Shown in pieces: positions 25,748 to 64,000 of a DNA stretch of 64,000 nt. A program made the position numbers and the translations under genes. Location: positions 19,873 to 83,872 of IMG/VR virus record IMGVR_UViG_3300026311_000001; one strand, written 5' to 3'. Source of the DNA: a virus. The number at the start of each line of letters is the position of its first letter. The first letter of the stretch is position 1. A model generated the notes under the pieces. It searched no databases and was not told the DNA's origin. It was given only the letters and a program-made list of their open reading frames with translations.

Positions 25748-25822
25748 TAAAACTTTTGCCTTTCTTGGACTACAAGGCATCAAAGGTTCACCTCTTTGAT
25801 TTAAAACATAAACAGATACACT
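25748..25822 (-). pseudogene. IscB/IsrB-type PLMP-domain N-terminal fragment, no start codon
   Basis: SVSVYVLNQRGEPLMPCSPRKAKVL, cut off by the left end of TnpB element 1. Confidence 0.55.
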
Positions 25823-26100
25823 CGTGTTCTGTTTCCGATTTGACTCGGATTGATCCCCATCGGGATTGTTTAAGAACCGTTTGTCATTTTTCAGACCAAT
25901 CTCAACACTAAGAGTTTCCTCTTTGTTTAATTGAGAATTCACAGAGCAAAGGACTTGGGAAGTATCCCCTGGTGTGTTCTTTAACTTTTTCTTAAACTTC
26001 TGCATAAAACCTCTATTAAAATTTTAAGCTCCCTAATCAACCAATTACCCTTGAAAGTCACCTCTCAAGCCCTTCCCCTTTAGGGAAGGGTGATTGACTT
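25823..26100 (-). ncRNA. HEARO/IscB-omega-RNA-like structured RNA candidate, copy 2
   Basis: Immediately 5' of the PLMP fragment, as expected for IscB omega-RNA; homologous to 4103-4372 with hairpin covariation. Confidence 0.45.
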
Positions 26101-27174: not shown

Positions 27175-27197
27175 AGTGTTATTGATTAAAGTTGTTT

Positions 27198-31764: not shown

Positions 31765-31869
31765 ATTGCAAATATACAATTTTTATATTAATTGTTATCT
31801 TTGTATAAGATTATTAACCATGCCTTACATCCAACCGACTGAAGATCGGTTGGTTTTACGGCATAAATT
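30585..31869 (-). mobile_element. TnpB-only IS200/IS605-like element 2
   Basis: Left end AATTTATGCCGTAAAACCA + hairpin ACCGATC..GTCGGTTGG, preceded by TTTAT (31874..31870); right-end hairpin + TAGTTCAC (30592..30585). Confidence 0.65.
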
Positions 31870-35129: not shown

Positions 35130-36074
35130 ATGAACGAAGCACTAAAGGCATTTGAATTTAAAACCGAAGGGGAGGGAATTAATGTACTATCTCTTTTCGA
35201 TGGGATGTCGTGTGGGCAAATTGCATTGCAGAAACTTGGTGTAAAAGTTAAAAACTATTTTGCCTCTGAGATTAAACCACACGCCATAAAAGTAACTCAA
35301 CACAATTTCCCTGATACAATCCAGGTAGGTGATGTTACAAAACTACACGGTGAGTCATTTCCAAAAATAGACTTGCTAATAGGTGGCTCACCTTGTCAGG
35401 ATTTTAGCAGGGGTAATGCAATACGTGATGGATTGAATGGGATTAAATCAGGGCTTTTCTTTGAATACTTACGGCTAAAAGCTGAATTAAATCCTACCTA
35501 TTGGCTACTTGAAAATGTAGTGATGAGTGATGCTGATTATTTCACCATTAGCAACTACATGAAAACCGAACCAGTAAGGATTAATTCGGCTTTGATTTCT
35601 GCTCAATTACGTGACCGCCTTTATTGGACAAACGTAGGTCCGGAATACTTCGACTTATTTGGTAGCCGTAAGTGTGTAATACCACAACCAAAAGATAAAG
35701 GAATACTACTTAAACACATTTTAGAAAGTGGATATACTGATAGAGAAAAAAGCAGAGCATTACTTGAAAGTGATAGCCGACCATTACGGACACTTGAAAA
35801 AATGTGGCATAGATATTCTGATACAGGATTTACAACTGTGGTATTTGAAAGCCCTGATTTAGATTGGCAAAAAGGATTGAGATACTTTACACAAACTGAA
35901 TTAGAAAGACTACAAACTGTACCCGAAGGATACACCTCAATTTTGAAACGTAATGACGCAGCGTGTTTACTTGGTGATGGTTGGACTGTTGATGTTATTG
36001 CTCATATCTTGTCTTTCATGCGCGTGGGGGTTTTAAATTCAAATGCCTTACCCGAACTACAATATGAAACATGA
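35130..36074 (+). CDS. DNA (cytosine-5) methyltransferase
   Basis: LSLFDGMSCG (motif I), GGSPCQDFS (IV), LLENV (VI). Confidence 0.85.
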   Translation: MNEALKAFEFKTEGEGINVLSLFDGMSCGQIALQKLGVKVKNYFASEIKPHAIKVTQHNFPDTIQVGDVTKLHGESFPKIDLLIGGSPCQDFSRGNAIRDGLNGIKSGLFFEYLRLKAELNPTYWLLENVVMSDADYFTISNYMKTEPVRINSALISAQLRDRLYWTNVGPEYFDLFGSRKCVIPQPKDKGILLKHILESGYTDREKSRALLESDSRPLRTLEKMWHRYSDTGFTTVVFESPDLDWQKGLRYFTQTELERLQTVPEGYTSILKRNDAACLLGDGWTVDVIAHILSFMRVGVLNSNALPELQYET

Positions 36075-36090: not shown

Positions 36091-36116
36091 TATGGCATAT
36101 ACACGTTGTTATGTGC
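36091..36116 (+). repeat. attC-like GTT-side half-site
   Basis: 3' arm GGCATATACAC + GTTATGTGC. Possible partner arm GTGTATATGAC at 35096-35106 after TTTTAAC (35070-35076), which would enclose the C5-MTase gene; tentative. Confidence 0.4.
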
Positions 36117-36240
36117 TGTAAACCGTGAGCGTATGGCAAGCCCAACATGTGCGGTGGGAATGGATTTGAAGCATTGCATATACGGCTGGTATATGCTGTG
36201 CGGCCTCCGGCAGGGGTTGGGCTTATTGAGGAGGTTTATT

Positions 36241-36376
36241 GCACATAACGTTGAGTGTAACCGCATGTAGCGGATTAGAAAGTAATAACCTATCAAATTA
36301 TACGAATATGAATAAAGAGCAGAACACTTCGCAAACCACAGAACCCGCTATTGCGGTTGACACTGTGTTAGGCAAC
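36241..36376 (+). repeat. attC-like imperfect palindrome (136 bp)
   Basis: GCACATAAC; arms GTTGAGTGTAACCGCATGTAGCGG / CCGCTATTGCGGTTGACACTGT; GTTAGGCAAC = revcomp of 36569-78. Confidence 0.65.
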
Positions 36377-36565
36377 GTACTTTATTTACCTGAATTGGTA
36401 ATGAGTTGGAAATCTTTAAATGTAGATAATTTTGGTGTTAAACTACCAATTACAACATATCCAGGGATGGGTAAATATTGGATACCTGTATTTGAAAGCA
36501 TTGAAGAATGCAAAAAAGAATATCCTGACAGTAAGGTGATAATTATAAAACAAGGGCAATGGTAG
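36308..36565 (+). CDS. hypothetical cassette protein
   Basis: Start MNKEQ in the palindrome loop; ORF track 36239 start unlikely. Confidence 0.45.
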   Translation: MNKEQNTSQTTEPAIAVDTVLGNVLYLPELVMSWKSLNVDNFGVKLPITTYPGMGKYWIPVFESIEECKKEYPDSKVIIIKQGQW

Positions 36566-36568
36566 TAT

Positions 36569-36625
36569 GTTGCCTAACGGTTAGTATAAACGGTCGTTTT
36601 AATGCCGTTTATACATTGTTGTGTG
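36569..36625 (+). repeat. attC-like imperfect palindrome (57 bp, minimal form)
   Basis: GTTGCCTAAC; arms GGTTAGTATAAACGGTCG / TGCCGTTTATACATT; GTTGTGTG = revcomp of 37118-25. Confidence 0.7.
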
Positions 36626-36732
36626 TCTGTGGGCGGTGATTTAGTACTAAACTTTATTTGAAATACTGAACAAAAAAGAAAAAAGGGAGGGGGAAAACTT
36701 TATAGAGTACCCATTTATATAAATCTGATACA

Positions 36733-37041
36733 ATGAAAGTATTAACAGAAGGTCACAAGTACCAATTAAGCGGTTTTGAGAACGCTGAAAACACTCAAGA
36801 AATCCAATTCATTGAGAAAACGCCAATTGAAGGCACAACCGAATTGAAAACGGTAAATGATGGAACAACTAACGAGGAACTTCTTGAAGTCTTAATTGAC
36901 CGAATGAACTACTTACAAGGAAAATTCCCTTGCCGTGAAAATGCAATTGTAATTACTAAACTTCAAGAATCTTTGATGTGGTTAGAAAAAAGAACGTCTG
37001 ACCGTAAAAAGAGAAATGTAGAAGGTAAACAATTGGCTTAA
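36733..37041 (+). CDS. hypothetical cassette protein
   Basis: 102-aa ORF. Confidence 0.5.
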   Translation: MKVLTEGHKYQLSGFENAENTQEIQFIEKTPIEGTTELKTVNDGTTNEELLEVLIDRMNYLQGKFPCRENAIVITKLQESLMWLEKRTSDRKKRNVEGKQLA

Positions 37042-37117
37042 ATTTTTGTGAGCGTGGGCTTTTTCTTTTTTGATTATTAGCAGAAATGTTGATTTGAAAA
37101 ACGGATTTAGCCCATTG

Positions 37118-37415
37118 CACACAACAAGGCTGGCGGTATGGGTATGTTTGCCCAACGCACCGCACCGGACTTGAATTGAAATACTTAACTTAAAAATACG
37201 AGCGATGGCATATTATTCATTGAATACACAAATAAACAAAGGGAAATACAAAGGGAAAAAAGTAGAGGAACTTATTAAAAGTACCGAAGGGCAAAAATAT
37301 CTTCTTGCCTTACATATTGGAAACTATAATGTGTTTTTAAACCCAGAAGTATTCAGAGCGTTGGCAGATTACACTCGAACAAAGAACGGCAAATTACCTA
37401 TACCGCATGTTAGCG
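37118..37415 (+). repeat. attC-like site, long and weak (298 bp)
   Basis: CACACAAC; arms GGCGGTATGGGTATG / CCTATACCGC; GTTAGCG = revcomp of 37511-17. The 3' arm lies inside ORF 37205..37516. Confidence 0.35.
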
Positions 37416-37516
37416 ATACGGTTTGCGATAATCCGCATTGCGTAGACGGTGTAGTAGCTGAAATATATGGCGAAAAAGTTTACTGCGATAAATGTCAATC
37501 GCAAACTGGACGCTAA
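37205..37516 (+). CDS. hypothetical cassette protein with C-terminal Cys cluster
   Basis: ..CDNPHCVDG..YCDKC; stop TAA inside CGCTAAC. Confidence 0.45.
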   Translation: MAYYSLNTQINKGKYKGKKVEELIKSTEGQKYLLALHIGNYNVFLNPEVFRALADYTRTKNGKLPIPHVSDTVCDNPHCVDGVVAEIYGEKVYCDKCQSQTGR

Positions 37517-37637
37517 CGTTTGACGGTATCAGCAGTATTTGCTTCACTAAATTTAATTTTAAACACAAATGACAAAATTAGCAGAAAATAATCCACAAGG
37601 CACGGCAAATATTGCTGATGACTGTGTGTTAGCCACC
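37511..37637 (+). repeat. attC-like imperfect palindrome (127 bp)
   Basis: CGCTAAC; arms GTTTGACGGTATCAGCAGTATTTGC / GCAAATATTGCTGATGACTGTGT; GTTAGCCACC = revcomp of 37887-96. Confidence 0.65.
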
Positions 37638-37895
37638 GTACTTTTATGTGATTGCGGGTCGGCGGAGCATCAAATAATAATACATAAAGACAAAGATTTT
37701 TCAGAAGGATATAGAGAAGTGATACTTTGTCCACACTTAATCACATACCGTAATATTTTCAAACGGGTATTGGTTGCTTTTAAATACATATTTGGTTATA
37801 AATGCAAATATGGTGCGTGGGATAGTATCATAGTTTCGAAACAAAATTATCTACCATTAAAAGAAGCTGTGGAGTTTCTTGAGTATGGTGGCTAA
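37569..37895 (+). CDS. hypothetical cassette protein
   Basis: Its only Met codon lies inside the preceding palindrome loop; an in-frame GTG sits at the GTT core (37626). Confidence 0.45.
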   Translation: MTKLAENNPQGTANIADDCVLATVLLCDCGSAEHQIIIHKDKDFSEGYREVILCPHLITYRNIFKRVLVAFKYIFGYKCKYGAWDSIIVSKQNYLPLKEAVEFLEYGG

Positions 37896-38022
37896 CGGAC
37901 GAGCGTATGAGTAGTGGCGGATAGAATGCAACTACCTTTCGTAAAGCACAAAGATTGAAAAGAGAACTAAACTTAAATATTAACACAAAAACCGCCATTA
38001 CTTATACGCATTGTTAGCGGTA
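37887..38022 (+). repeat. attC-like imperfect palindrome (136 bp)
   Basis: GGTGGCTAAC (stop TAA inside); arms GGACGAGCGTATGAGTAGTGGCGG / CCGCCATTACTTATACGCATT; GTTAGCGGTA = revcomp of 38596-605. Confidence 0.7.
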
Positions 38023-38049
38023 TGTATGGGCGGATTAGAAGTACAAAAG

Positions 38050-38604
38050 ATGAAAAAATACGAAATAATTTACGCAGATCCAGCTTGGCAATATAAGACC
38101 AAAGAAAGCCTTGCAAAAACAAGTATTTTGAATGGGGAGCTTAACACCCATTATGGAACGATGACTATTGCTGAGTTGGGTGGGTTGCCGTTGGGGAGCA
38201 TTTCAGATAAAAACTCTATGCTGTTTATGTGGGTGGTTAGCCCGATGCTTGATGATGGAATTGAACTTATGAAAAAATGGGGCTTTAAATATAGCACAAT
38301 AGCTTTTATTTGGCACAAACAAAGGGCTAACCCTGGACATTATACTATGAGCGAATGTGAAATATGTTTAGTTGGAAGGCGGGGTAAAATACCAACTCCA
38401 AGAGGGGCAAGAAATGTTCGTCAGTTTTTATCTGAAATGCGTGGAAAACACTCTGCTAAACCAACTGAAATAAGAAATAGAATTGAACTTATGTTTCCAA
38501 CACAAACAAAATTAGAAATGTTTGCAAGGCAGAGTGCGAAGGGTTGGGATGCGTGGGGAAACGAGGTTGAAAATAGCATTGACCTTAGCCCATATTACCG
38601 CTAA
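38050..38604 (+). CDS. MT-A70-family N6-adenine DNA methyltransferase
   Basis: MKKYEIIYADPAWQY (DPPW-type motif), ..HSAKPTE.. Confidence 0.8.
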   Translation: MKKYEIIYADPAWQYKTKESLAKTSILNGELNTHYGTMTIAELGGLPLGSISDKNSMLFMWVVSPMLDDGIELMKKWGFKYSTIAFIWHKQRANPGHYTMSECEICLVGRRGKIPTPRGARNVRQFLSEMRGKHSAKPTEIRNRIELMFPTQTKLEMFARQSAKGWDAWGNEVENSIDLSPYYR

Positions 38605-38697
38605 CGGCTTGTGGTATGAAATCGAAACCGACACCACCACAGCCTGAACAATGCGACTAAGCAACCAGAGGTTTTGTTTTATACCACTTGTTAGCCA
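38596..38697 (+). repeat. attC-like imperfect palindrome (102 bp)
   Basis: TACCGCTAAC (stop inside); arms GGCTTGTGGTATGAAATCGAAACC / GGTTTTGTTTTATACCACTT; GTTAGCCA = revcomp of 39141-48. Confidence 0.7.
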
Positions 38698-38739
38698 TCT
38701 GGTGCGGTCAATTAGTAATAAACTTAATTTGAAAACGAA

Positions 38740-39147
38740 ATGGAAGCAAAAAATTTTAGAATTGGAAATTTACTTACAAGCAAAGGATGGGGAAATGTTG
38801 GGGCAATTGAAGGGATTGAAATTACACAAGATGGTTTTGAATTGAAAGTAAAAGGGTATGTGCATCCTTGGGAAAAAGACAAATATTTTGATTTAGCCCC
38901 AATTGAATTAGATGAAGAATGGCTTACAAAATTTGGATTTATTGAAGAAACTCCAAACGAGTTTATACTACGGAAACATCCGATAATTTTTAACATTCAT
39001 AGAAATTTAGTCACTGGTGAGTTTATGTCCAGAATGAACCCGAATTATTCAATATTAGTTAAATCTGTTCATCAATTGCAGAATTTATTTTTTGCGCTTA
39101 CAAAAGATGAACTTGAATTGAAAACGGAATGTAGCACTTGTGGCTAA
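38740..39147 (+). CDS. hypothetical cassette protein
   Basis: 135-aa ORF, stop inside TGGCTAAC. Confidence 0.5.
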   Translation: MEAKNFRIGNLLTSKGWGNVGAIEGIEITQDGFELKVKGYVHPWEKDKYFDLAPIELDEEWLTKFGFIEETPNEFILRKHPIIFNIHRNLVTGEFMSRMNPNYSILVKSVHQLQNLFFALTKDELELKTECSTCG

Positions 39148-39235
39148 CGGTCGGGTATTGGCGATGCCCGCACTTAGAAACTTTAAATTATAAACAAGCT
39201 GTCCAGCGGGTATTGCCAATACCTTGTTAGCAGCA
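39141..39235 (+). repeat. attC-like imperfect palindrome (95 bp)
   Basis: TGGCTAAC (stop inside); arms GGTCGGGTATTGGCGATGCCCGC / GCGGGTATTGCCAATACCTT; GTTAGCAGCA = revcomp of 39446-55. Confidence 0.7.
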
Positions 39236-39252
39236 GTAACGGATTAAAAAAA

Positions 39253-39441
39253 ATGGAACAGTCAAAACAAGAAAAAGAAATTTATGAGTTAGCAGAACTT
39301 TTGATGCAGTCTGAAAACTTAGAAGCAAGTGCAACTATCCTTCGTGATTTTGCTGAAAAGTGTTATCAAGAAGGGGCGGTTGATGCTCAAAAAGATGCAG
39401 CGGAAGAAATACGTGAACACTATGTCGAAGGTGGTCGGTAG
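39253..39441 (+). CDS. hypothetical small acidic cassette protein
   Basis: 62-aa ORF. Confidence 0.4.
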   Translation: MEQSKQEKEIYELAELLMQSENLEASATILRDFAEKCYQEGAVDAQKDAAEEIREHYVEGGR

Positions 39442-39445
39442 TTAT

Positions 39446-39581
39446 TGCTGCTAACGGTTGATTATATGAAACGGTGGGGATTTAAAGCCTTACATTTTCG
39501 CATCGTAATAAACTAACAACAAGGCAGGTGGGCTAAAAAGACGTATGACACCCCACTGTTTTATATAATGTGTTGTGCGCA
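39446..39581 (+). repeat. attC-like imperfect palindrome (136 bp)
   Basis: TGCTGCTAAC; arms GGTTGATTATATGAAACGGTGGGG / CCCCACTGTTTTATATAATGT. GTTGTGCGCA differs from its own AAC side but equals revcomp of 39794-803. Confidence 0.7.
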
Positions 39582-39589
39582 GTACGGTT

Positions 39590-39790
39590 ATGAAATTTGC
39601 AGTAACAGTTTTTAATACTGAAAGAGTTTCTTACGAAGAAATAAAAGACGTAGGACACACGAAAATTTTTAATGACACTGATAGTTTGAAAGATATAATT
39701 GAATGGGGAAACTCTATTCGTGCAAAAACCTATGATGGGCCAAAAACAGTTGATATAACAGAATTAAGATTCAGCAAGTTGTGTGAGTAG
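39590..39790 (+). CDS. hypothetical small cassette protein
   Basis: ATG at 39590 preferred over the GTG at 39575, which lies in the GTT core. Confidence 0.4.
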   Translation: MKFAVTVFNTERVSYEEIKDVGHTKIFNDTDSLKDIIEWGNSIRAKTYDGPKTVDITELRFSKLCE

Positions 39791-39793
39791 TAT

Positions 39794-39891
39794 TGCGCAC
39801 AACGGATGGGTATATGAAAAGTAGCCCAACCGCAAACTTTGAACAACGCACGAACCTTTCATGGGCTATTTTTTATATACCGTGTTAGCTG
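39794..39891 (+). repeat. attC-like imperfect palindrome (98 bp)
   Basis: TGCGCACAAC; arms GGATGGGTATATGAAAAGTAGCCCA / TGGGCTATTTTTTATATACCGT; GTTAGCTG = revcomp of 40764-71. Confidence 0.7.
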
Positions 39892-39923
39892 TCTGGTGCG
39901 GATTTTAAAAACAAAACTTTAAT

Positions 39924-40757
39924 ATGAAAAACGAACGTAGTAATAATATTTTTTTGAGCGGTGGCAAAAATGGTTTTGAAAAAAACAAAAACATCCTTTG
40001 GTATGGTGAATGCCTTCAGATGATGAAGCAAATACCTGACCAGAGTATAAACCTAATCTGCTGTGATTTACCCTATGGTGTGACTAAAAATAAATGGGAT
40101 TCATTAATTGACTTGGATTTGCTTTGGGAGCAATACGAAAGAGTAATAGTTGAAAATGGTGCAATAGTTCTTTTTGGACAAGATAAATTTTCTGCAAGGT
40201 TGATGCTTTCAAATGAGAAGCTACATAGATATAACTTGATATGGCAGAAAACCACACCAACAGGACATTTGAACGCTAAAAGAATGCCCTTAAGAAGCCA
40301 CGAAGATATATTGGTGTTTTACAAGAAATTACCAACATATAACCCACAAAAAACGACTGGACACAAAAGGAAGGTAAGCACAGCAAAGCATAAGCGAAAC
40401 TCAAAAAAGACAACCAATTACGGTGAACACGGATTGACAACTTATGATAGTACCGAACGCTACCCGAAAAGTGTTTTGACCTTTGCAACTGATAAACAGA
40501 AATCAGCATTACATCCAACACAAAAACCGCTGGAGTTGATTAAATATCTTGTAAAAACATATTCAAATGAAAATGATTGGGTACTTGATAATACTTGCGG
40601 AAGTAACACAACTGGACTTGCTTGCTTTGAATTAAACCGAAACTATATTGGAATTGAGAATGATTTTGATATGTACGAAATTTCAAAAGAGCGGGTGGGA
40701 GAAAAAAATATTATTACGGCTGATATGCACGAACCTTCAATTAAAACTGGAACGTAG
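39924..40757 (+). CDS. DNA methyltransferase (N4-C/N6-A, beta class)
   Basis: LICCDLPYGV catalytic motif; HPTQKPLELIKYLV; DNTCGSNTTG AdoMet motif. Confidence 0.8.
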   Translation: MKNERSNNIFLSGGKNGFEKNKNILWYGECLQMMKQIPDQSINLICCDLPYGVTKNKWDSLIDLDLLWEQYERVIVENGAIVLFGQDKFSARLMLSNEKLHRYNLIWQKTTPTGHLNAKRMPLRSHEDILVFYKKLPTYNPQKTTGHKRKVSTAKHKRNSKKTTNYGEHGLTTYDSTERYPKSVLTFATDKQKSALHPTQKPLELIKYLVKTYSNENDWVLDNTCGSNTTGLACFELNRNYIGIENDFDMYEISKERVGEKNIITADMHEPSIKTGT

Positions 40758-40763
40758 CACTTG

Positions 40764-40900
40764 CAGCTAACGGATTACGGCTATGAAGCGTTGCCGAGTA
40801 AAACGCCCTAACTTTCAAATTAAAAATAAAATGAATAAAGAGAACAAAACTTCGGATAAGCACGAACACGGCAATGATTTTATAGCCGATGTTATGCAAC
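40764..40900 (+). repeat. attC-like imperfect palindrome (137 bp)
   Basis: CAGCTAAC; arms GGATTACGGCTATGAAGCGTTGCCG / CGGCAATGATTTTATAGCCGAT; GTTATGCAAC = revcomp of 41041-50. Confidence 0.7.
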
Positions 40901-41049
40901 GTTTTTTAATTTATGCTGATGACTACATCACTTGGAACAAACAAAAAAATGACTGGAATCATTCTGATGAATTTACAGGCACTTACTTAGACGCTCACGA
41001 ATATGCCCGTTCAAAATATGGTAAGCGTTATACTTTAAATGTTGCATAA
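40831..41049 (+). CDS. hypothetical small cassette protein
   Basis: MNKENK leader start in the loop; alternative in-frame ATG inside the GTTATGC core at 40894. Confidence 0.4.
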   Translation: MNKENKTSDKHEHGNDFIADVMQRFLIYADDYITWNKQKNDWNHSDEFTGTYLDAHEYARSKYGKRYTLNVA

Positions 41050-41174
41050 CGTGTTGCAAATAAATATAGTACGATTATGAAAGAAAAAATTATCGAAATA
41101 GTAGGATTTAACATGGAACCCGAAAGGGCTGAACTTATTGCGCAGCGAGTATTGGATTTATTTGCTGTTATGCG
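41041..41174 (+). repeat. attC-like imperfect palindrome (134 bp)
   Basis: GTTGCATAAC (stop inside); arms GTGTTGCAAATAAATAT / GATTTATTTGCT; GTTATGCG = revcomp of 41376-83. Confidence 0.55.
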
Positions 41175-41382
41175 ACGTTTTAATTTTAGAATTGTAAAAG
41201 ACGTGAATAGAGATAAAAAACACCCAGGATGGGAAATGATTAATTACGGATTAGAAATTGATAATGAAATAGTATGTTGGTTTGCTTATGAACATCCACA
41301 AATGACATTAGAAGAAATTAAGTTGCAACAAAATAAAAGAGAATTATATGAAGAAATTGTGCGCAGGGTAAATGGCGCATAA
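41077..41382 (+). CDS. hypothetical cassette protein
   Basis: 101-aa ORF; in-frame ATG inside the GTTATGCG core at 41170. Confidence 0.45.
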   Translation: MKEKIIEIVGFNMEPERAELIAQRVLDLFAVMRRFNFRIVKDVNRDKKHPGWEMINYGLEIDNEIVCWFAYEHPQMTLEEIKLQQNKRELYEEIVRRVNGA

Positions 41383-41472
41383 CGGTTGAGGCTAAGAAAC
41401 GTAGCCTTGTAATCACGTTTCAAAATAGGCAGGAACTTGTCAGGCTATGTTTTTTAGCCTTTGTTACCGCCA
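41374..41472 (+). repeat. attC-like imperfect palindrome (99 bp)
   Basis: GGCGCATAAC (stop inside); arms GGTTGAGGCTAAGAAACGTAGCC / GGCTATGTTTTTTAGCCTTT; GTTACCGCCA = revcomp of 41947-56. Confidence 0.7.
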
Positions 41473-41488
41473 GTTAATTTTAAAAGTC

Positions 41489-41746
41489 ATGAGTAATTAT
41501 TTGGAATTTCAAGAAATTAAATCAGATTATTTTAATGCTGATGGTGAATTTTACGGAGGATTCACAGGATGCTCGCCTGTAAAAAATATTATGGAAAAAA
41601 TGAACAAAACTATTGAGGAAATGGCAGAACATTCAAAACGCCTTGTTGCTCAAATTGAATCTTTTGACTTTATAAACAAAGAACCATTAAATTTAAAAGA
41701 TAGTGAACATTTTATTAACTTAAAAAAATATATAGATTATGTGTAA
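41489..41746 (+). CDS. hypothetical cassette protein
   Basis: MSNYLEF start preferred over the 41447 start, which lies in the palindrome arm. Confidence 0.4.
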   Translation: MSNYLEFQEIKSDYFNADGEFYGGFTGCSPVKNIMEKMNKTIEEMAEHSKRLVAQIESFDFINKEPLNLKDSEHFINLKKYIDYV

Positions 41747-41945
41747 ATATAAAAAATCAAACCCGCAACCTAAAAACATTCCATATCCAAGAGTTCAATT
41801 TGAATCTGAGTGTGGATTTAAACTTATGTTAACAGAAGGATATGACCAAGATTGGCATAACCACAAAAAATACGGACAGCCATTATTGCCAAAAGGTAAA
41901 TGCTTAAAGTGTCAGTCTGAAATTGAAGTAGTGCCGTCTTTTTAA
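41739..41945 (+). CDS. hypothetical small protein with a CxxC pair
   Basis: 68-aa ORF, ..CGF...GKCLKCQSE.. Confidence 0.4.
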   Translation: MCKYKKSNPQPKNIPYPRVQFESECGFKLMLTEGYDQDWHNHKKYGQPLLPKGKCLKCQSEIEVVPSF

Positions 41946-41946
41946 T

Positions 41947-42082
41947 TGGCGGTAACGGTGGGTGTAGCTGCCAGTGGCGGCAAGTAACCGAAAAGCATAA
42001 TTAGAATTATAAACTTTAAAATACTTACAAAATGTCAAACGAAGAACAACACCAGCCATTGCAGCTACACGATGTTAGCCGC
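41947..42082 (+). repeat. attC-like imperfect palindrome (136 bp)
   Basis: TGGCGGTAAC; arms GGTGGGTGTAGCTGCCAGTGGC / GCCATTGCAGCTACACGAT; GTTAGCCGC = revcomp of 42408-16. Confidence 0.65.
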
Positions 42083-42403
42083 TGCCCTTCTGATGTTGAA
42101 ATGATTGAATCATTAAATAAGAAGGTTGAAGAAAAACAACGAAAACTTAATGACCTGGAAAACAAATTCAGGGAATGCCGGGAAGAGTACAGGCAACTTA
42201 TATCTTTTCAAATCGCTCAATTAAGAGCAGTACAGATGCTTTACGATGTGATGAAAAACGGAAATACTCACTATCAAAAGGCTTTATTTGCTGAAATAGC
42301 TAAGGAATCGCTTGGCCGAGAAATAGGTTCACTTATTGAACGCTATCAAAACACTAAATGGAAATTTCGATTAGGTGACGAACCTGACGAACTACCGTTT
42401 TAG
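42032..42403 (+). CDS. coiled-coil protein with SSB-like acidic tip
   Basis: Ends ..GDEPDELPF*. Confidence 0.45.
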   Translation: MSNEEQHQPLQLHDVSRCPSDVEMIESLNKKVEEKQRKLNDLENKFRECREEYRQLISFQIAQLRAVQMLYDVMKNGNTHYQKALFAEIAKESLGREIGSLIERYQNTKWKFRLGDEPDELPF

Positions 42404-42407
42404 GGTT

Positions 42408-42542
42408 GCGGCTAACGTTGGGTATATGACCAGTAGCGGATTAAATAGTAATAACTTATCAAATTAGTAGAATGAATATAGAAAGCACAGAACTTCAAAA
42501 CAGCACCGCCCCCGCTATTGGTTATATACCGGGTTATGCACA
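42408..42542 (+). repeat. attC-like imperfect palindrome (135 bp)
   Basis: GCGGCTAAC; arms GTTGGGTATATGACCAGTAGCGG / CCGCTATTGGTTATATACCGG; GTTATGCACA = revcomp of 43555-64. Confidence 0.7.
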
Positions 42543-43551
42543 GGTTTTTTCTCATCGTTTTCCTTATCGTTGGACTTTGAAAGATGCCAACTTTACAAAG
42601 GATAAGGGCAAAGTATTTAGTTGCTTTGCTTGTGGTGGTGGTTCAACAATGGGTTACAAATTAGCGGGGTTTGATGTGATAGGATGCAATGAGATTGACC
42701 CTAAAATGATGGAAGCATACCGAACTAACCACAACCCCAAATACAGCTATTTAGAACCGATACAAACCTTTAAACTTAGAAAGGATTTACCAAAGGAATT
42801 ATACAACCTTGATATTTTGGACGGTTCACCACCTTGTAGCAGTTTTTCAATGGCTGGAAATAGAGAAAAAGACTGGGGTAAAGATAAGGTTTTTAGAGAA
42901 GGTCAAGCGATGCAAGTTTTAGATACTTTGTTTTTTGATTTTATTGATTTGGCGAAGAAATTACAGCCGAAAGTTGTGGTTGCTGAAAATGTGAAAGGGT
43001 TGCTTTTAGGCGAAGCGAAGAAATATGTAAGACAAATATACCGTGAGTTTGACCAAGCAGGATATTACTGCCAACATTGGCTTTTAGATGCTTCAAAAAT
43101 GGGTGTACCTCAAAGACGTGAGCGAGTGTTTTTTATTTGTTTACGTAAAGATTTAGCTGAACCTTTTTTGTATCAGCAAGATTTGTTTACGGTTAATCCT
43201 AAATTGGAATTGAATTTTAATGAGCCGGAAATACCTATAAAGCAATTTGCAAAAGGTATTGCAAAAAAAGAAAGTCAAAATTATTCAGAAGATAGATTTG
43301 GCGATGTAATGTTAGACTTGAATAGAGCAAGCAACACAATAGCGACAGACATAAATAGATATTGGCTTGATGAAAATACGTTGATTGATAAAAACACAGT
43401 TAGCTTAATAGGTAGTTATCCTATTGATTACAACCACTTGGAATTTAACAACCCTCAGTATTTAATCGGAATGAGCGTTCCGCCTGTAATGACAGCAAAC
43501 ATAGCGACTGAAATTTATTCGCAATGGCTCTCAAAATTGGCACGGTCTTAA
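42472..43551 (+). CDS. DNA (cytosine-5) methyltransferase
   Basis: FSCFACGGGSTMGY (I), GSPPCSSFSMAG (IV), ENVKGLL (VI), QRRERVFFI (VIII). Confidence 0.85.
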   Translation: MNIESTELQNSTAPAIGYIPGYAQVFSHRFPYRWTLKDANFTKDKGKVFSCFACGGGSTMGYKLAGFDVIGCNEIDPKMMEAYRTNHNPKYSYLEPIQTFKLRKDLPKELYNLDILDGSPPCSSFSMAGNREKDWGKDKVFREGQAMQVLDTLFFDFIDLAKKLQPKVVVAENVKGLLLGEAKKYVRQIYREFDQAGYYCQHWLLDASKMGVPQRRERVFFICLRKDLAEPFLYQQDLFTVNPKLELNFNEPEIPIKQFAKGIAKKESQNYSEDRFGDVMLDLNRASNTIATDINRYWLDENTLIDKNTVSLIGSYPIDYNHLEFNNPQYLIGMSVPPVMTANIATEIYSQWLSKLARS

Positions 43552-43554
43552 ACT

Positions 43555-43689
43555 TGTGCATAACGGCTGCGGGTATGACCAGTGGCGGATTACGAGTACA
43601 AAACTTTCAAAATACGATACAGAATGAACGAAGCAAATAACTTTCAAATAGCAGAAAACCCGCCATTGGTTATACCCGATGTTAGCAAC
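43555..43689 (+). repeat. attC-like imperfect palindrome (135 bp)
   Basis: TGTGCATAAC; arms GGCTGCGGGTATGACCAGTGGCGG / CCGCCATTGGTTATACCCGAT; GTTAGCAAC = revcomp of 44372-80. Confidence 0.7.
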
Positions 43690-44367
43690 TGCCCTTTTTC
43701 TATTGTCTTTAACGAGGATTGTGTGCAGGGTTTAAAACGCTTTGCAGATAATTACTTTGATTTGGCAATAGTTGACCCGCCTTATGGAATTGGAGCAGAT
43801 AAAGCCCAAAATAACGCTGCTATGCAAAGAATAAAAGCAGAAGGTAAAAGCAAAGCTGGGAGAGGTTGGAAATTATACGCTGATACTGATTGGGATAATG
43901 AAATACCAACCTTTGAATATTGGGAGCAGTTGTTTAGGGTATCTAAAAATCAAATTGTGTGGGGTGGCAATTACTTTACGGAATATCTGCCCCCATCAAT
44001 GGGTTGGGTAATGTGGGATAAAGGGCAAAGAGATTTTAGCCTTGCCGATGGGGAACTTGCATGGACAAGTTTTAACAAAGCCTTACGAATATTTGAAATG
44101 AGTAGAGGAAAGGCACTTGCTAAAAATAACGAGCAAGGGGGCAGATTTCACCCAACTCAAAAACCTGAAATGCTTTATAGTTGGATTTTGCAGAATTACG
44201 CAAAGCAGGGGGATTTGATTTTAGATACCCATTTAGGAAGTGGAAGTTCAAGAATAGCAGCGTATAAAGGCGGGTTCAACTTTGTAGGATTTGAAATAAA
44301 CGAACATTATTACGAGAAGCAAGAAAAGCGTTTTAAAAACTTCTCGGCACAGCAGCGGCTCTTTTAG
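43624..44367 (+). CDS. N6-adenine/N4-cytosine DNA methyltransferase (DPPY)
   Basis: LAIVDPPYGIG, HPTQKPEMLYSWIL, DTHLGSGSS; start MNEANNF preferred over the GTG at 43582. Confidence 0.8.
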   Translation: MNEANNFQIAENPPLVIPDVSNCPFSIVFNEDCVQGLKRFADNYFDLAIVDPPYGIGADKAQNNAAMQRIKAEGKSKAGRGWKLYADTDWDNEIPTFEYWEQLFRVSKNQIVWGGNYFTEYLPPSMGWVMWDKGQRDFSLADGELAWTSFNKALRIFEMSRGKALAKNNEQGGRFHPTQKPEMLYSWILQNYAKQGDLILDTHLGSGSSRIAAYKGGFNFVGFEINEHYYEKQEKRFKNFSAQQRLF

Positions 44368-44371
44368 GGTT

Positions 44372-44405
44372 GTTGCTAACATATGTATAAGCGCACTTTA
44401 CAGAC
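44372..44405 (+). repeat. attC-like AAC-side half-site (last of + array)
   Basis: GTTGCTAAC + ATATGTATAAGCGCAC... The only complementary partner in the window is the inverted copy at the right window edge. Confidence 0.4.
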
Positions 44406-44548
44406 GTAAATAATCATGTAATACAGTAACAATGGCACTTACAGAAAAACAAAAATATAATATTCAACAACTCTCCATTGAAGATACAATAGAAATACTT
44501 GACGAGTGTAAAGAAAGACTTGGATTAGTCTCGCAGGGAGATTATAAA
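44378..44548 (+). repeat. inverted repeat, left copy (171 bp)
   Basis: 100% identical to the reverse complement of 63743-63747 plus 63836 to window end. Confidence 0.9.
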
Positions 44549-44638
44549 AAGATAACAGCGTATCCATATTCCCGTGAAAATTTAGTACAGGATATGAAGA
44601 AAGGAAAGATCAGGTATTGGGAGTTGTACCCCATTTAA
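44432..44638 (+). CDS. hypothetical small protein; 5' part duplicated in inverted orientation at window end
   Basis: 68-aa ORF; bases 44432-44543 recur as the reverse complement at 63836-63947. Confidence 0.4.
   Translation: MALTEKQKYNIQQLSIEDTIEILDECKERLGLVSQGDYKKITAYPYSRENLVQDMKKGKIRYWELYPI
44551..44632 (+). repeat. possible attC-like site between small ORF and tnpB unit (arms weak)
   Basis: GATAAC (44551-56) ... GTTGTACCCC (44623-32) = revcomp of 45917-26; inner-arm pairing poor. Confidence 0.3.
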
Positions 44639-45926
44639 GGACGCAAAGAGCGACCATAAACAGTTCCTCCTTCATAGATTCGACTAATGCCGACATCTCC
44701 AGAGGCTCTTCCGACAGTACCTGCCGTGAGTAAGTTTTGTTTCTGTAATCCGAATTTTAGAATATTATTTGCAGCAAGAAAATCTCTATTGTTTTCAATA
44801 CCGCATTTACTACAAGTCCAAACTCGGTCAGATAATTTTAATTCTTTATTTATTTCACCACAACCGCACATTTTAGAACTTGGTTCAAATCTTCCTATTT
44901 CTAAATAGTTACCGCCTTGTTCCTGCATCTTGTATTGCAACAAGGTATAAAATCTACCTAATCCTAAATCCGAAATAGATTGTGCAAGTTTGTGGTTTCT
45001 CATCATACCATATATGTTTAAGTTTTCACACGCAACCGTATTGTACTGTTTGGCTATCGCAGTAGTTATTTTGTGTAGGAAATCTAATCTCTGATTTGAT
45101 ATTTTCTCGTGAAGCAAAGCCACTTTTAAGTTTGCTTTTTTTCTGTTTGAGCTTCCTTTTTGCTTTTTTGAAGCTCTACGTTGTAATACTTTTAATCTTT
45201 GTATTGAGTTTTTTAAGTGTTTTGGATTTTCTATTTCAGTACCATCAGATAAAGTTGCAAATGTTTTTATTCCAGTATCAATACCAACAGCATTAACCTT
45301 CGATATAGGCTTTTGCTTCACTTTAACATCAGGTAATTCAACCGTTATTGAAACAAAGAACTTTCCAGTTGGTTTTTTCTCTATTGCTGCTGTTTTTATT
45401 TTGCCGTCAAACGTTCTGCTAATCTTAGTTTTTATCCATCCAATTTTATTTACAGATACTTTATTATTTTCAAAATCTACTTTCGTGTTTTGCGGAAATC
45501 CGACACTGTGAGTCCCTTTGTGCTTGCTCTTAAATTTTGGGAAGCCCTTCTTTTGCTTAAAGAAACGTGTAAATGCTTTGTCCATATTTACAATGGATTG
45601 CTGCAAACTTTGAGCAACAGATAGCTTTAACCACTCATATTCGGGATTCTTTTTTAACTGAGTAAGTTCGGTCATTAAAGTAAAAGCGGATATGCTTTTC
45701 TTTTCTGATTGGTATTCCTTTATACGTCTATCCAATGCCCAATTGTATACAAAACGAGCATTTCCCAGCATCTGATTTAATTGCTGTTCCTGCTCTTTGT
45801 TCGGATAAACCCTATATCGAAAACCTTTTACCATAATGCAAATATATAAAAAATATTTTAATTCCTACACAAAAGCATTAATTATTTTAGAACTCAAGAA
45901 CGCAAAGAATAAAAACGGGGTACAAC
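44623..45926 (-). mobile_element. tnpB unit bounded by perfect 10-bp GTTGTACCCC/GGGGTACAAC inverted cores
   Basis: Cores at 44623-32 and 45917-26; flanked by attC-like hairpin 45917-45975. Confidence 0.55.
44635..45834 (-). CDS. tnpB: TnpB RuvC nuclease (third subtype)
   Basis: MVKGFRYRVYPN.., AVGIDTGIKTFATLS, TVACENLNIYGM, CGCGE..CSKCG, NRDFLAANNI. Confidence 0.9.
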   Translation of the reverse strand: MVKGFRYRVYPNKEQEQQLNQMLGNARFVYNWALDRRIKEYQSEKKSISAFTLMTELTQLKKNPEYEWLKLSVAQSLQQSIVNMDKAFTRFFKQKKGFPKFKSKHKGTHSVGFPQNTKVDFENNKVSVNKIGWIKTKISRTFDGKIKTAAIEKKPTGKFFVSITVELPDVKVKQKPISKVNAVGIDTGIKTFATLSDGTEIENPKHLKNSIQRLKVLQRRASKKQKGSSNRKKANLKVALLHEKISNQRLDFLHKITTAIAKQYNTVACENLNIYGMMRNHKLAQSISDLGLGRFYTLLQYKMQEQGGNYLEIGRFEPSSKMCGCGEINKELKLSDRVWTCSKCGIENNRDFLAANNILKFGLQKQNLLTAGTVGRASGDVGISRIYEGGTVYGRSLRP

Positions 45927-45975
45927 ACGGTATAAACCGCATTAAAACGACGGCTTATACTCATCGTTAGGAGGA
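45917..45975 (-). repeat. attC-like minimal palindrome, opposite polarity
   Basis: Minus strand TCCTCCTAACGATGAGTATAAGCCGTCGTTTTAATGCGGTTTATACCGTGTTGTACCCC. 43/50 identical to 36573-36622, with compensatory arm changes. Confidence 0.7.
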
Positions 45976-46049
45976 ATTAGATTTCCTATAATTAATACTT
46001 AAAATCTCAATATTTAGAAATCATTACTTTTGAAGAAAAGTAAAAGGTA

Positions 46050-46691
46050 ATGACTTTAAAGGACGTGTTATATACTTTCTGGCATTTCGTAGGAGAGAAG
46101 AAACTTGACATATCACTTGACCAAATAAACAGGTATCTTGAATTCGCGAATGAAGAATTAAAGAGGACTGTATACGGTCGCATAGGCGAAGAAAAAGGTT
46201 TCGAGAACGAGCAACAGATAATGGATGCCTTACTACCTTTTAAAACATTTGTAAATATTTCATTGACTAACGGGGCGGGTAATTTACCTGCCGATTACTG
46301 GCATAAAGCAAGGATGGAGGTTACTTCTAACGGGTATGAGGTAAAATTTGTAACCTCGGAAGAATGTGCAAGAAGGAGAAATAATTCTATTACTCAGCCG
46401 ACTACTACTTATCCGATAGTAGAATTAAAAGATGGGATATTTCAAGTATATCCTACTTCAATAACTCAGGTTACGCTTGTATATTTAAAAAAAGGAAATA
46501 CACCAAAGATTGCATTGAAGTTAGAAAATGCCATCCAGATATATGATTCATCTAATTCGGTAGAACTTGAATGGTCAACTACCGATAAATATCTTGATAT
46601 AGTAAGGATAATGTTAGGGTATGTTAATGTACCAATATCTAACGAGCAAATATTATCTTATGTAGAACAAAAGGTAGATAAAGAAAATTAA
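46050..46691 (+). CDS. virion-module protein, function unknown
   Basis: 213-aa ORF, first of a tightly coupled + strand block. Confidence 0.5.
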   Translation: MTLKDVLYTFWHFVGEKKLDISLDQINRYLEFANEELKRTVYGRIGEEKGFENEQQIMDALLPFKTFVNISLTNGAGNLPADYWHKARMEVTSNGYEVKFVTSEECARRRNNSITQPTTTYPIVELKDGIFQVYPTSITQVTLVYLKKGNTPKIALKLENAIQIYDSSNSVELEWSTTDKYLDIVRIMLGYVNVPISNEQILSYVEQKVDKEN

Positions 46692-46693
46692 TC

Positions 46694-47485
46694 ATGACGC
46701 TAGCTCAGATATATAAAAATGTACATACGATACTATCAAAAGATGGTAATGAAGGGTTGATATCTATGGATAGGTGGAATCCTCTTATCTATTCTTTATA
46801 TCATCAGTTCATTAAGAATAAGATAGAAGAACAGTTCTATATACTTTCCAGTGGTGCGATACGTCCTAAGACTATATATTCATCAAAGCTTATCAACAAT
46901 TTAATAATTCAGGACACAACAAGTAGCACGCTGGTAGATGCTCAAAAAAGGAAGCATAATCTATCATTTACAATGTTATATTGGTTATCAGCAAAGACGG
47001 CCACTGCCTATAATGGACAGATAAGAGAAATTGAACTTATTGATGAATACGAATTAAGGAACAGACAATCATCTATGCGTAAGCCGATAGACGAATATCC
47101 GGTTGCTACAATACTAAGAGAGATAAATGGTCTTGAGACAGCTACGCCGCATAGTTATATTTATGTATGGCCTACAGATATTTCATCTATACATTTGTCA
47201 TACGTAAAAAGACCCGTTACGCCATTTTTAGATTATTATATAGATGCTAATTATCAAACACAATTCATATCGGCAGGAACTACGCAAGCGATAACAAGTG
47301 GATCGCAATACAGAGACGGGACAACGACAGGCACTAAAACATCGGCAACGGTGGAGTTGGAACTTGATGAAAATTTTCATCCTGCATTTCAGGAATATAT
47401 AGTTGGTGAGTTACAGCGTATGTTAGGAGATATGAATTCAGAACAAATAACATTAGCTAAACGGCAAATGGAGGAAAGCAAATGA
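46694..47485 (+). CDS. virion-module protein, function unknown
   Basis: 263-aa ORF. Confidence 0.5.
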   Translation: MTLAQIYKNVHTILSKDGNEGLISMDRWNPLIYSLYHQFIKNKIEEQFYILSSGAIRPKTIYSSKLINNLIIQDTTSSTLVDAQKRKHNLSFTMLYWLSAKTATAYNGQIREIELIDEYELRNRQSSMRKPIDEYPVATILREINGLETATPHSYIYVWPTDISSIHLSYVKRPVTPFLDYYIDANYQTQFISAGTTQAITSGSQYRDGTTTGTKTSATVELELDENFHPAFQEYIVGELQRMLGDMNSEQITLAKRQMEESK

Positions 47486-48093
47486 CCAAACAGGAATACA
47501 TAGATTTTGTTCATGAAGAATTAGGCGAGGCACTCAGAAAGAACATTGAGAAGCAGTCTGTGGAAGCTGCTATAAATACGGCGTATAATCAGATTGTATT
47601 CGATCTTGTAAGGGGAGGTGTAAGAAATTTTGATCTATGCAGGAAAAGATTTACAAGTATTGCCGTTACTTATGATTCAAATGCAGATGTTTATTACTCT
47701 GATTGGCCTGCCGCGATAGTTCCTCATATTAACGGAGAAATGATAGTCAGTACCGTTCAGGGATCAGGAATAAGGTTTGCGCCTATGTCAGAACAAGATG
47801 TCCTTCTTACTACCGGGCTACTCGTTGATTTAATAGACACGACAATTTATACGATAATAAAACGTGAAAGGATTGAATATTATAATATGGAAAGTCTATC
47901 TCAGGACGAGATAGACACAGGGTCAAGTCCGACTCCTAAAATATCTACTGTGAGAATGGATTTAGCTATTGAATTCAGGGAGTTCGCAACGACAGATGAG
48001 GTATACATGCCTATGGGGAGAGATTATGAGGTACTTGAATTAGCACTTGATTTCTTAAGAAAAGAACCGATTATCGACATAAGAAATAACTAA
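47482..48093 (+). CDS. virion-module protein, function unknown
   Basis: 203-aa ORF, 4-nt overlap with the upstream gene. Confidence 0.5.
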   Translation: MTKQEYIDFVHEELGEALRKNIEKQSVEAAINTAYNQIVFDLVRGGVRNFDLCRKRFTSIAVTYDSNADVYYSDWPAAIVPHINGEMIVSTVQGSGIRFAPMSEQDVLLTTGLLVDLIDTTIYTIIKRERIEYYNMESLSQDEIDTGSSPTPKISTVRMDLAIEFREFATTDEVYMPMGRDYEVLELALDFLRKEPIIDIRNN

Positions 48094-63780: not shown

Positions 63781-63835
63781 CGTGGATGCCGTGAAACCCG
63801 AAGCCCATTTGTCTTTAGCAAATGGGTAGTTCACA
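63748..63835 (+). mobile_element. 88-nt miniature element (two hairpins, no ORF) of the TAGTTCAC family
   Basis: TTTAT|AAAACGGAGCGTAAAACCCAGTCATCGCTTTAGCGTGGATG..CCCATTTGTCTTTAGCAAATGGGTAGTTCAC|; interrupts the right copy of the 171-bp repeat. Confidence 0.6.
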
Positions 63836-64000
63836 ATCTCCCTGCGAGACTAATCCAAGTCTTTCTTTACACTCGTCAAGTATTTCTATTGTATCTTCAA
63901 TGGAGAGTTGTTGAATATTATATTTTTGTTTTTCTGTAAGTGCCATTGTTACTGTATTACATGATTATTTACGTCTGTAAAGTGCGCTTATACATATGTT
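63836..64000 (-). repeat. inverted repeat, right copy (runs off window)
   Basis: Reverse complement of 44378-44543; separated from its last 5 nt (TTTAT, 63743-47) by the 88-nt mini-element. Confidence 0.9.

Follow-up and report, generated by a model that had tools for sequence, protein, structure and literature searches.

A tnpB nuclease gene packaged as an integron-like cassette in a Flavobacteria-type phage

TnpB, the ancestor of Cas12, is known only as a passenger of IS200/IS605 and IS607 transposons. In IS200/IS605-family elements (IS1341-type when they carry only tnpB, with ISDra2 TnpB and its omegaRNA as reference), the omegaRNA overlaps the 3' end of tnpB and ends at the element boundary, so that the guide comes from flanking DNA. 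Insertion follows a short fixed motif (the TAM) without target duplication, and similar subterminal hairpins, rather than terminal inverted repeats, mark both ends. Integron cassettes move differently, through IntI-mediated single-strand recombination between the G and the TT of a GTT triplet, at attC sites with the layout RYYYAAC, spacer, imperfect inverted repeat, spacer, GTTRRRY. Clusters of attC sites lacking an integrase (CALINs) have also been described in phages: 17 were reported in 10,705 genomes, among them that of Polaribacter phage P12002L, with no dedicated recombinase and no nuclease or TnpB cargo (Qi et al. 2023, PMC9892861). Here we analysed a 64,000-nt window of a viral genome (IMG/VR record IMGVR_UViG_3300026311_000001), whose phage nature is supported by an SU10 adaptor-like gene, NinG, a lysozyme and large tail-type proteins. 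In it, a tnpB gene has the same hairpin site and end sequences as a neighbouring array of integron-like cassettes. We found no paper linking TnpB to attC.

A discrete unit inserted in a small phage gene

The tnpB gene (44635-45834, minus strand) encodes a full TnpB of 399 aa with OrfB_IS605, HTH and Cas12f1-like TNB domains, intact RuvC residues D186, E270 and D351 and the zinc-finger cysteines, and matches ISDra2 TnpB at E=1e-68. We confirmed the first-pass annotation in that the gene lies between perfect inverted 10-mers: GTTGTACCCC at 44623-44632 on the plus strand and its reverse complement at 45917-45926, the only exact pair of this 10-mer in the window. A perfect inverted pair of at least 10 nt between the two 150-nt flanks arises in about 2.4% of shuffles, so the pair alone is only suggestive. 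Yet it is conserved at both ends of the unit in about 20 independent loci, and the two cores co-vary in more distant relatives (GTTGTACTGAA with TTCAGTACAAC, and GTTGAACTC with GAGTTCAAC).

Read on the minus strand, the unit (44623-45965, 1.34 kb) follows the target core xTAAC and starts with its attC-like site (45965-45927): a 5-nt spacer GATGA (45965-45961), stem GTATAAGCCG (45960-45951), loop TCGTTTTAATG (45950-45940), stem CGGTTTATAC (45939-45930) and a 3-nt spacer CGT (45929-45927). Then come the R'-type core GTTGTACCCC (45917-45926), the first 10 nt of the conserved cargo; a putative promoter; tnpB; and the omegaRNA scaffold, whose last 10 nt, GGGGTACAAC (44623-44632), form the 3' terminal core (R''-type inverse core) and are the exact complement of the 5' core. 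The putative promoter box, TATATTTG (45839-45846, minus strand), resembles a Bacteroidota-type -7 box (TAnnTTTG), lies 4 nt upstream of the ATG in a block conserved with two other tnpB genes of the window, and is conserved in related tnpB loci (L001-L008; L numbers designate related loci).

The hairpin is a diverged copy of a site in the array (36576-36620, plus strand), which reads AAC-GGTTA-GTATAAACGG-TCGTTTTAATG-CCGTTTATAC-ATT-GTT and heads the cassette carrying the Acb2/Tad1-like ORF 36733-37041. Minus-strand positions 45971-45922 are 43/50 identical to 36573-36622 (plus), the stem differences are compensatory, or G.T on the tnpB-sense strand, and the 11-nt loop is identical. Only these two copies occur in the window. 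The first-pass annotation had placed this hairpin next to the cassette in opposite polarity; it is rather the cassette's own site, 5' of tnpB on the tnpB-sense strand, and its polarity arises because the whole unit sits inverted relative to the plus-strand array.

The unit does not sit in the array but at a secondary xTAAC site inside a conserved phage gene at the end of the array. The 5' part of that gene (44432-44622, plus strand; 63 codons plus 2 nt) precedes the unit, and its 3' part (45966-46002, plus strand) encodes (E)LGGIRFPIINT and the stop. The first bases of the latter, GTTAG, read CTAAC on the minus strand, the target core and predicted TAM that precedes the unit. Homologs of the interrupted gene are 75-76 aa and end in ..RRFPIINSK, and joining 44622 to 45966 gives ..RYWELGGIRFPIINT and the stop, which matches ..KYYEICGRRFPIINSK and restores the conserved C-terminus. 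An exact empty-site 20-mer found nothing in the metagenome contigs searched, and neither the adaptor gene nor the reconstructed gene found anything in the viral contigs; the empty site therefore rests on protein homologs at 58-79% identity, not on an allele of the same phage. A megablast of 43500-47500 against INPHARED returned only a methyltransferase at 82-88% identity.

To establish the boundaries of the unit, we compared homologous loci. About 20 other viral or MAG contigs carry the same unit with identical ends in unrelated flanks: the L005 and L006 units are 99.77% identical over 1302 nt, L003 and L027 98.2%, and L001 and L005 97.9%. On the 3' side conservation stops exactly at GGGGTACAAC, and on the 5' side it extends only through the hairpin to xTAAC, with NTAAC preceding the unit in 15 of 16 tnpB loci. 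No canonical IS200/IS605 ends lie beyond the cores, an outcome opposite to the one that would have made the 10-nt match coincidental. The GGGTAGTTCAC ends of three canonical elements of the window (elements 1-3) are also absent from this unit. Because downstream flanks of the tnpB unit are all different while the upstream hairpin travels with it, and because the insertion contains hairpin plus tnpB, we rejected a model in which each site belongs to the gene upstream of it.

An omegaRNA ending at the cassette boundary

An alignment of 11 loci supported an omegaRNA scaffold of about 109 nt (44623-44731, minus strand), overlapping the last 32 codons and the stop of tnpB. It contains four helices in which 19 of 24 pairs show compensatory changes, with 98.1% paired against 73.6% in shuffles and slid controls reaching at most 8. 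No Rfam family matches this region, and only two HEARO RNAs elsewhere reached threshold. The scaffold ends at 44623, the unit end, and not near 44549, the alternative raised in the first-pass annotation. From this position and the known TnpB/omegaRNA arrangement, we infer that the guide is the flanking DNA immediately 3' of the unit (TCCCAATACCTGATCTTTCC, 44603-44622, minus strand), which matches the uninterrupted allele right after CTAAC, and predict that TAAC is the TAM.

The cassette array and its relatives

Upstream of the interrupted gene lie 15 consecutive cassettes (36108-44380, plus strand), each of the form GTTxxxxx..cargo..xxxxxAAC with 8-10 nt of perfect terminal complementarity, and separated by folded sites of about 40, 80 or 120 nt. 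At least 14 folded sites lie in 36247-43683, besides the tnpB site, so that, like the P12002L locus, this is an array of attC-type sites without an integrase. The cargo includes an MT-A70, two N6_N4 and one C5 methyltransferase, and the Acb2/Tad1-like gene. After the last AAC, an attI-like anchor (44381-44431, plus strand; ATATGTATAAGCGCACTTTACAGACGTAAA...) is conserved upstream of all homologs of the interrupted gene while the preceding cassette differs, and the breakpoint between the window and loci L019 and L020 falls between AAC and ATATG.

A scan with the loop motif found at least 119 viral contigs. Of 130 sites, 120 have AAC upstream and 125 have GTT downstream, and 124 of 128 have all three unconstrained stem pairs complementary, against about 29 expected. 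The layout is that of attC (ATAAC or CTAAC upstream; GTTAT, GTTGT or GTTAG downstream). The family itself is not entirely new: HattCI had predicted a member, P12002L_attC1, with the same loop, spacers and cores as the tnpB hairpin, between DNA methyltransferase genes (PMC9892861). In L007, L013, L027 and L029 the tnpB unit sits in tandem with other cassettes. The hairpin class upstream of near-identical tnpB cargo nevertheless varies (classes A, B and C, and an 80-nt type), so the linkage between site and cargo is not absolute.

As in integrons, the core at the start of each of these cassettes is complementary to the inverse core at its own end, the signature of a circular intermediate, although over 8-12 nt rather than 7. 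Polarity, in contrast, is not that of integron cassettes, where mostly promoterless cargo precedes attC: in 64 of 66 closed units the ORF lies 3' of the site on the same strand, cargo genes read towards the recombinase of related phages, start codons lie inside site loops, and G.T pairs favour folding of the sense strand.

In those related phages, a 266-aa tyrosine recombinase lies directly downstream of arrays in 9 loci, and in L006 the tnpB unit is the cassette next to it. This protein carries PF13495 and PF00589, has XerA / 'integron integrase' as its best NCBIfam match, and aligns end to end with XerA. It scores below the curated cut-offs for IntI (155 bits on TIGR02249 against 265) and XerA, lacks about 48 aa relative to VchIntIA between residues 179 and 265, where integron integrases carry their signature domain, and was taken by its annotators for a lysogeny integrase (PMC8776804). 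Interestingly, the Polaribacter phage Freya_10 differs from Freya_1 by 4.9 kb of cassettes inserted exactly between ..ACAAC and ACCCC.., 65 nt upstream of the integrase start, which places cassette gain or loss right after AAC and next to this gene.

Mobilisation of the unit

Taken together, we favour, with moderate confidence, the first of the two alternatives raised in the first-pass annotation, namely that tnpB and its omegaRNA are the cargo of a phage integron-like cassette; the second, an origin or enzyme shared with IS200/IS605 hairpins, is neither shown nor excluded. The enzyme that moves the unit is inferred, not shown. No tyrosine recombinase is encoded in the window or in 79.7 kb of the roughly 83.5-kb genome, so it would act in trans or have acted in the past. 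We infer that the excised unit closes on itself (..GGGGTACAAC joined to GATGAGTATAAG..), so that GGGGTACAAC pairs with GTTGTACCCC at the foot of the hairpin and forms an attC-like folded site on the gene-sense strand, and that strands are exchanged at the AAC/GTT triplet, inserting the unit at the attI-like end of the array or, as here, at a secondary xTAAC site. Because the scaffold ends at the cassette boundary, its guide would be read from whatever follows the cassette, and because every cassette ends in TAAC, that motif can serve as the TAM. TnpB would then cut the tnpB-less junction (here the intact allele, CCTAAC+TCCCAATACC...), favouring retention of the cassette or its copying by recombination into co-infecting genomes, as described for IS200/IS605 TnpB.

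More tentatively, and somewhat less likely than not, TnpB/omegaRNA may have acquired a third kind of mobilisation partner besides the Y1 (IS605) and serine (IS607) transposases: an integron-like, Xer-family recombinase system of Bacteroidota phages. The same 10 nt would serve as recombination core, 3' end of the guide-RNA scaffold and end of the tnpB reading frame region, with the cassette core TAAC doubling as the TAM. The nuclease would be automatically re-programmed against whatever junction would exist without it, and act as an RNA-guided retention and homing device inside phage anti-defence arrays. This would add a new route by which RNA-guided nucleases travel, and give integron-like cassettes a built-in mechanism of selfish retention.

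The main competing explanation, unlikely but not dismissed, is an ordinary non-autonomous IS200/IS605 (IS1341-type) element moved in trans by a host Y1 HUH transposase (TnpA) through single-strand 'peel and paste'. The hairpin would be the left-end binding site, TAAC the target and TAM, and GGGGTACAAC the right-end cleavage site; the array itself could consist of passenger-carrying relatives inserted one after another behind each other's AAC end, and the nearby tyrosine recombinase would be an unrelated lysogeny integrase. The closeness to ISDra2 TnpB, the omegaRNA at the right end, the insertion 3' of NTAAC with no duplication beyond the shared AAC, the strand-specific hairpin and the location inside a gene all fit this view, as does the resemblance of the right ends of elements 1-3 (..GGGTAGTTCAC) to ..GGGGTACAAC or ..GGAGTTCAAC. 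Moreover, P12002L_attC1 was the one phage site not recombined by IntI1 (PMC9892861). However, although a host-encoded TnpA cannot be excluded, phmmer with IS608 TnpA (verified as PF01797) gave no hit at E<=1 in the window or in 153 related loci, and Pfam and PHROG scans of about 60 window ORFs found none. There is no matching right-end hairpin either, only a weak GGTCGC/GCGTCC stem inside the omegaRNA, unrelated to the left hairpin. The ends instead carry a co-varying inverted pair of 9-11 nt that IS200/IS605 elements lack, in a format shared with hundreds of cassettes carrying methyltransferases and other cargo; non-tnpB cassettes have no 3' structure beyond that complementarity; and arrays end at a conserved anchor next to a tyrosine recombinase, where the Freya indel maps.

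It is also conceivable, but improbable, that the unit no longer transposes and spreads only by TnpB/omegaRNA-triggered homing between co-infecting phages, the hairpin and inverted cores being relics or expression signals (a terminator, or 5' UTR structure). The lack of a mobilising enzyme in the part of this genome examined and the match of predicted guide and TAM to the intact allele are compatible with this, and the larger sites enclose the promoter, ribosome-binding site and start codon, so they may also act at the RNA level. But homing cannot produce near-identical units in unrelated flanks, the cores co-vary between subfamilies, and the exact boundaries after AAC are shared with cargo that has no nuclease. 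Finally, the possibility that the 10-nt match and hairpin similarity are coincidental or generic intergenic terminators, with tnpB simply a gene between two phage genes, has only the shuffling frequency in its favour and is refuted by the comparative data: both cores and the hairpin are conserved with exact boundaries in about 20 loci, the empty site can be reconstructed, and the stems co-vary across the family.

A tnpB gene within a discrete unit that interrupts a phage gene

The window is an AT-rich (about 36% GC) phage-type genome segment carrying structural genes, a lysozyme, NinG, many DNA methyltransferases and several tnpB genes. Among the latter, the ORF 44635-45834(-) encodes a complete TnpB of 399 aa with the OrfB_IS605, HTH and Cas12f1-like TNB domains, in which the RuvC residues D186/E270/D351 and the zinc-finger cysteines are conserved, and which matches ISDra2 TnpB at E=1e-68. 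The sequence GTTGTACCCC at 44623-32 and its reverse complement at 45917-26 are exact, and they are the only such pair in the window. The hairpin 45930-45960 and its flanks, read on the minus strand, are 43/50 identical to 36573-36622 on the plus strand, with an identical 11-nt loop (TCGTTTTAATG) and compensatory stem changes. The first-pass annotation, which had described this tnpB as bracketed by perfect 10-nt cores next to an attC-like hairpin, was therefore correct. A 10-nt inverted pair alone would nevertheless arise by chance in about 2.4% of shuffles, and it is the comparative data that make it meaningful.

To establish whether the block is an insertion, we examined the small + strand ORF 44432-44638, which ends inside the left core. 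Its homologs (P0002-P0008, 58-79% identical) are 75-76 aa long and end ..K(Y/S)(Y/W)E(I/F)CG(R/T)(R/S)(F/Y)PI(I/L)N(S/D)K. Joining 44622 to 45966 gives ..RYWELGGIRFPIINT*, with the stop at 46000-46002, so that 44623-45965 (1,343 nt) interrupts a conserved phage gene; the shared GTT/AAC triplet leaves 3 nt of ambiguity. Read on the tnpB strand, the target was ..CCTCCTAAC|TCCCAATACC..

TnpB relatives were found in 18 viral contigs and 9 MAG contigs. In the loci with 83-94% protein identity, conservation on the tnpB strand begins right after xTAAC and runs through a 5-nt spacer, a hairpin, a 3-4-nt spacer, GTTGTACCCC, a conserved leader with a TAnnTTTG box, tnpB, and ..CTTAAATGGGGTACAAC, after which the flanks diverge at once. 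Units from different loci (numbered here with the prefix L) are 99.77% (L005/L006), 98.2% (L003/L027) and 97.9% (L001/L005) identical while both flanks are unrelated, which means recent movement as a discrete unit. In more distant relatives the two cores change together, GTTGTACTGAA with TTCAGTACAAC in L011 and GTTGAACTC with GAGTTCAAC in L014/L031, so they are selected to pair. The upstream hairpin comes in several classes: one has the TCGTTTTAATG loop with five different compensating stems, and there are also a 60-nt class and an 80-nt class, yet within closely related units the class is constant. Interestingly, two otherwise identical contigs, L003 and L004, differ just after the tnpB unit (about position 7213) by a 16-nt insert, AAACGCTATAAATAAC, placed exactly after ..GGGGTACAAC| and itself ending in TAAC, which may be a footprint or a minimal remnant of a cassette.

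To locate the guide RNA, we aligned the last 88-113 nt before ..CAAC (109 nt in the window) from 11 loci. These sequences fold into four helices in which 19 of 24 pairs show changes on both sides and 98.1% of cells are paired, against 73.6% in shuffles, while slid controls give at most 8 such pairs. This is the omegaRNA scaffold, at 44731-44623 on the minus strand, for which Rfam has no model. It ends exactly at the unit boundary and not near 44549, the alternative end raised in the first-pass annotation. Following the established logic of TnpB elements, we infer that the guide is the next 16-20 nt of flank (44622-44603) and that the TAM is what precedes the left end, here NTAAC (15 of 16 loci); the ribonucleoprotein would therefore recognize the intact allele of the interrupted gene. 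The overlap of recombination core, guide-RNA end and TAM remains a prediction.

The surrounding array of integron-like cassettes

Between 36108 and 44380 there are 15 consecutive units, each starting GTTxxxxx and ending xxxxxAAC, with 8-10 nt of perfect complementarity between its own two ends. They are separated by sites of about 40, 80 or 120 nt that fold into 10-24-bp stems placed 4-5 nt after AAC and 1-3 nt before GTT. In 10 of 13 sites the + strand folds better than the - strand, because the stem mismatches are G.T on the gene-sense strand. The cargo is anti-defence: MT-A70, two N6_N4 and one C5 methyltransferase, and an Acb2/Tad1-like protein (ORF 36733-37041), with a further C5 methyltransferase (35130-36074) lying just upstream of the array; over the whole region 36108-44431, the cargo amounts to five DNA methyltransferases, the Acb2/Tad1-like ORF and unknowns, with no integrase. 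The larger sites, of ~120 nt, enclose the promoter, the start codon and the first codons of the following gene, so that the first ~20 codons of several genes lie inside the recombination site and are shared between cassettes (e.g. 36267-36330, 40790-40853, 42433-42496).

We then asked how general this architecture is. Of 130 distinct sites recovered with a loop-motif search, 120 have AAC upstream and 125 have GTT downstream, and in 124 of 128 the three stem pairs left free by the search pattern are complementary, against about 29 expected. A total of 66 units could be closed by the complementarity rule; in 64 of them the ORF lies 3' of the site on the same strand, and the large cargoes are again methyltransferases. 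The tnpB unit has the same layout and polarity, and in L007, L013, L027 and L029 it sits in tandem with other cassettes. These data support the first interpretation proposed in the first-pass annotation, namely that an OMEGA nuclease gene has been captured by the cassette system: the region is a mobile cassette whose cargo is tnpB plus its omegaRNA, and its membership of the cassette family, built on the same attC-like site and core rule as the anti-defence array of the phage, is well supported. Here it is inserted, inverted, at a secondary TAAC site inside the gene that anchors the array.

The array itself ends AAC|ATATGTATAAGCGCAC.. in front of the interrupted 75-aa gene. All homologs of that gene share this anchor (44381-44431 in the window), while the preceding cassette differs. 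In the window and in the homologous loci L023 and L159-L161, the anchor holds a conserved small hairpin, TTTAC-NNNN-GTAAA, and it starts with a motif (AAC|TAGGTTATAT in L023) like the one preceding a recombinase gene in other phages (AAC|TAGATTATAT). The 75-aa protein has no Pfam or PHROG match. An inverted second copy of the anchor plus the first 111 nt of the 75-aa gene (100% identical to 44378-44543) is found at 63835-64000, followed beyond the window end (L019 1-6000) by a second array of about 17 small ORFs on the minus strand. This copy is cut at GGAGAT|TGTGAACTACCC by the right end of a TAGTTCAC-type tnpB element. The two inverted copies bracket the structural module and could invert it.

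Candidate enzymes for cassette movement

No integrase and no Y1 transposase is encoded in the window, nor in the 79.7 kb of the roughly 83.5-kb genome that we could examine. In nine of the site-bearing contigs, however, a 266-aa tyrosine recombinase lies directly downstream of the array on the same strand, following the last ..TAAC| and a conserved TAGATTATAT-type anchor, and in L006 the tnpB unit is the cassette next to it. The protein has PF13495 plus PF00589, and its best NCBIfam matches are XerA / 'integron integrase' and TIGR02249, both below cut-off. It aligns end to end with Pyrococcus XerA and lacks about 48 aa where VchIntIA carries the integron-specific domain.

Homologs of this recombinase (38-41% identical) are the annotated integrases of the cultured Polaribacter phages Freya_1 to Freya_10 and of Cellulophaga phage Ingeline. 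Freya_1 (L155/L156) and Freya_10 (L154/L157) are 99.8-100% identical over the aligned flanks, with the exception of 4.9 kb of extra cassettes inserted exactly between ..GTTTACAAC| and |ACCCCTATAAC.., 65 nt upstream of the integrase start. The inserted block begins with a site and ends ..GCTAAC|. The ten Freya genomes form a length series (43,978 to 48,920 bp) with the integrase position shifting accordingly, and they represent a ready experimental system for this cassette machinery. The order of array, anchor and recombinase gene is the topology of an integron read on its bottom strand, i.e.: array, then attI, then integrase, with the difference that the cargo genes are on that same strand and bring their own promoters.

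Previous work bears on both the site family and the recombinase. Integrons and 17 CALINs have been reported in phage genomes (Qi et al., 2023; PMC9892861), and among them P12002L_attC1 (..GCTAACGGCTACGGCTAAACGGTCGTTTTAATGCCGTTTTAGCCATTGTTAGGC), which lies between two methyltransferase genes, belongs to the very loop family found next to tnpB here. It was the only one of six phage sites that IntI1 did not recombine. The Freya and Ingeline integrases were treated as lysogeny markers, without mention of cassettes (Bartlau et al.; PMC8776804). One paper notes a complete IS200/IS605 element beside a CALIN, not as a cassette (PMC7923331), and our literature searches for TnpB together with attC, integron or cassette found no description of a tnpB cassette. 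While it is firmly established that the block is a discrete mobile unit with these ends, that a XerA/IntI-like tyrosine recombinase moves it is inferred from association and one natural indel, and a host Y1 TnpA remains a real rival.

Other mobile elements and repeats in the window

Three canonical tnpB elements (24450-25643, 27203-28357, 30571-31779) end in ..GGGTGGGTAGTT(C/T)AC. The first of them has two right-end copies 116 nt apart, plus a 50-nt stretch upstream of its start (25703-25752) that is identical to 24337-24386. Two HEARO (IscB-type omegaRNA) Rfam hits were found at 4140-4371(-) and 25848-26098(-) (117 and 104 bits, respectively). The former lies upstream of a 374-aa TnpB-like ORF (2978-4102) and next to a 99-aa Resolvase-domain ORF at about 4350-4650, and the latter lies next to a 113-aa RRXRR fragment (25664-26005); they look like decayed IscB/IS607-like elements. 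Lastly, about 25 tandem copies of a 27-nt (9-codon) repeat are found at 26251-26933, inside the DUF7666 ORF 26080-27210(-).
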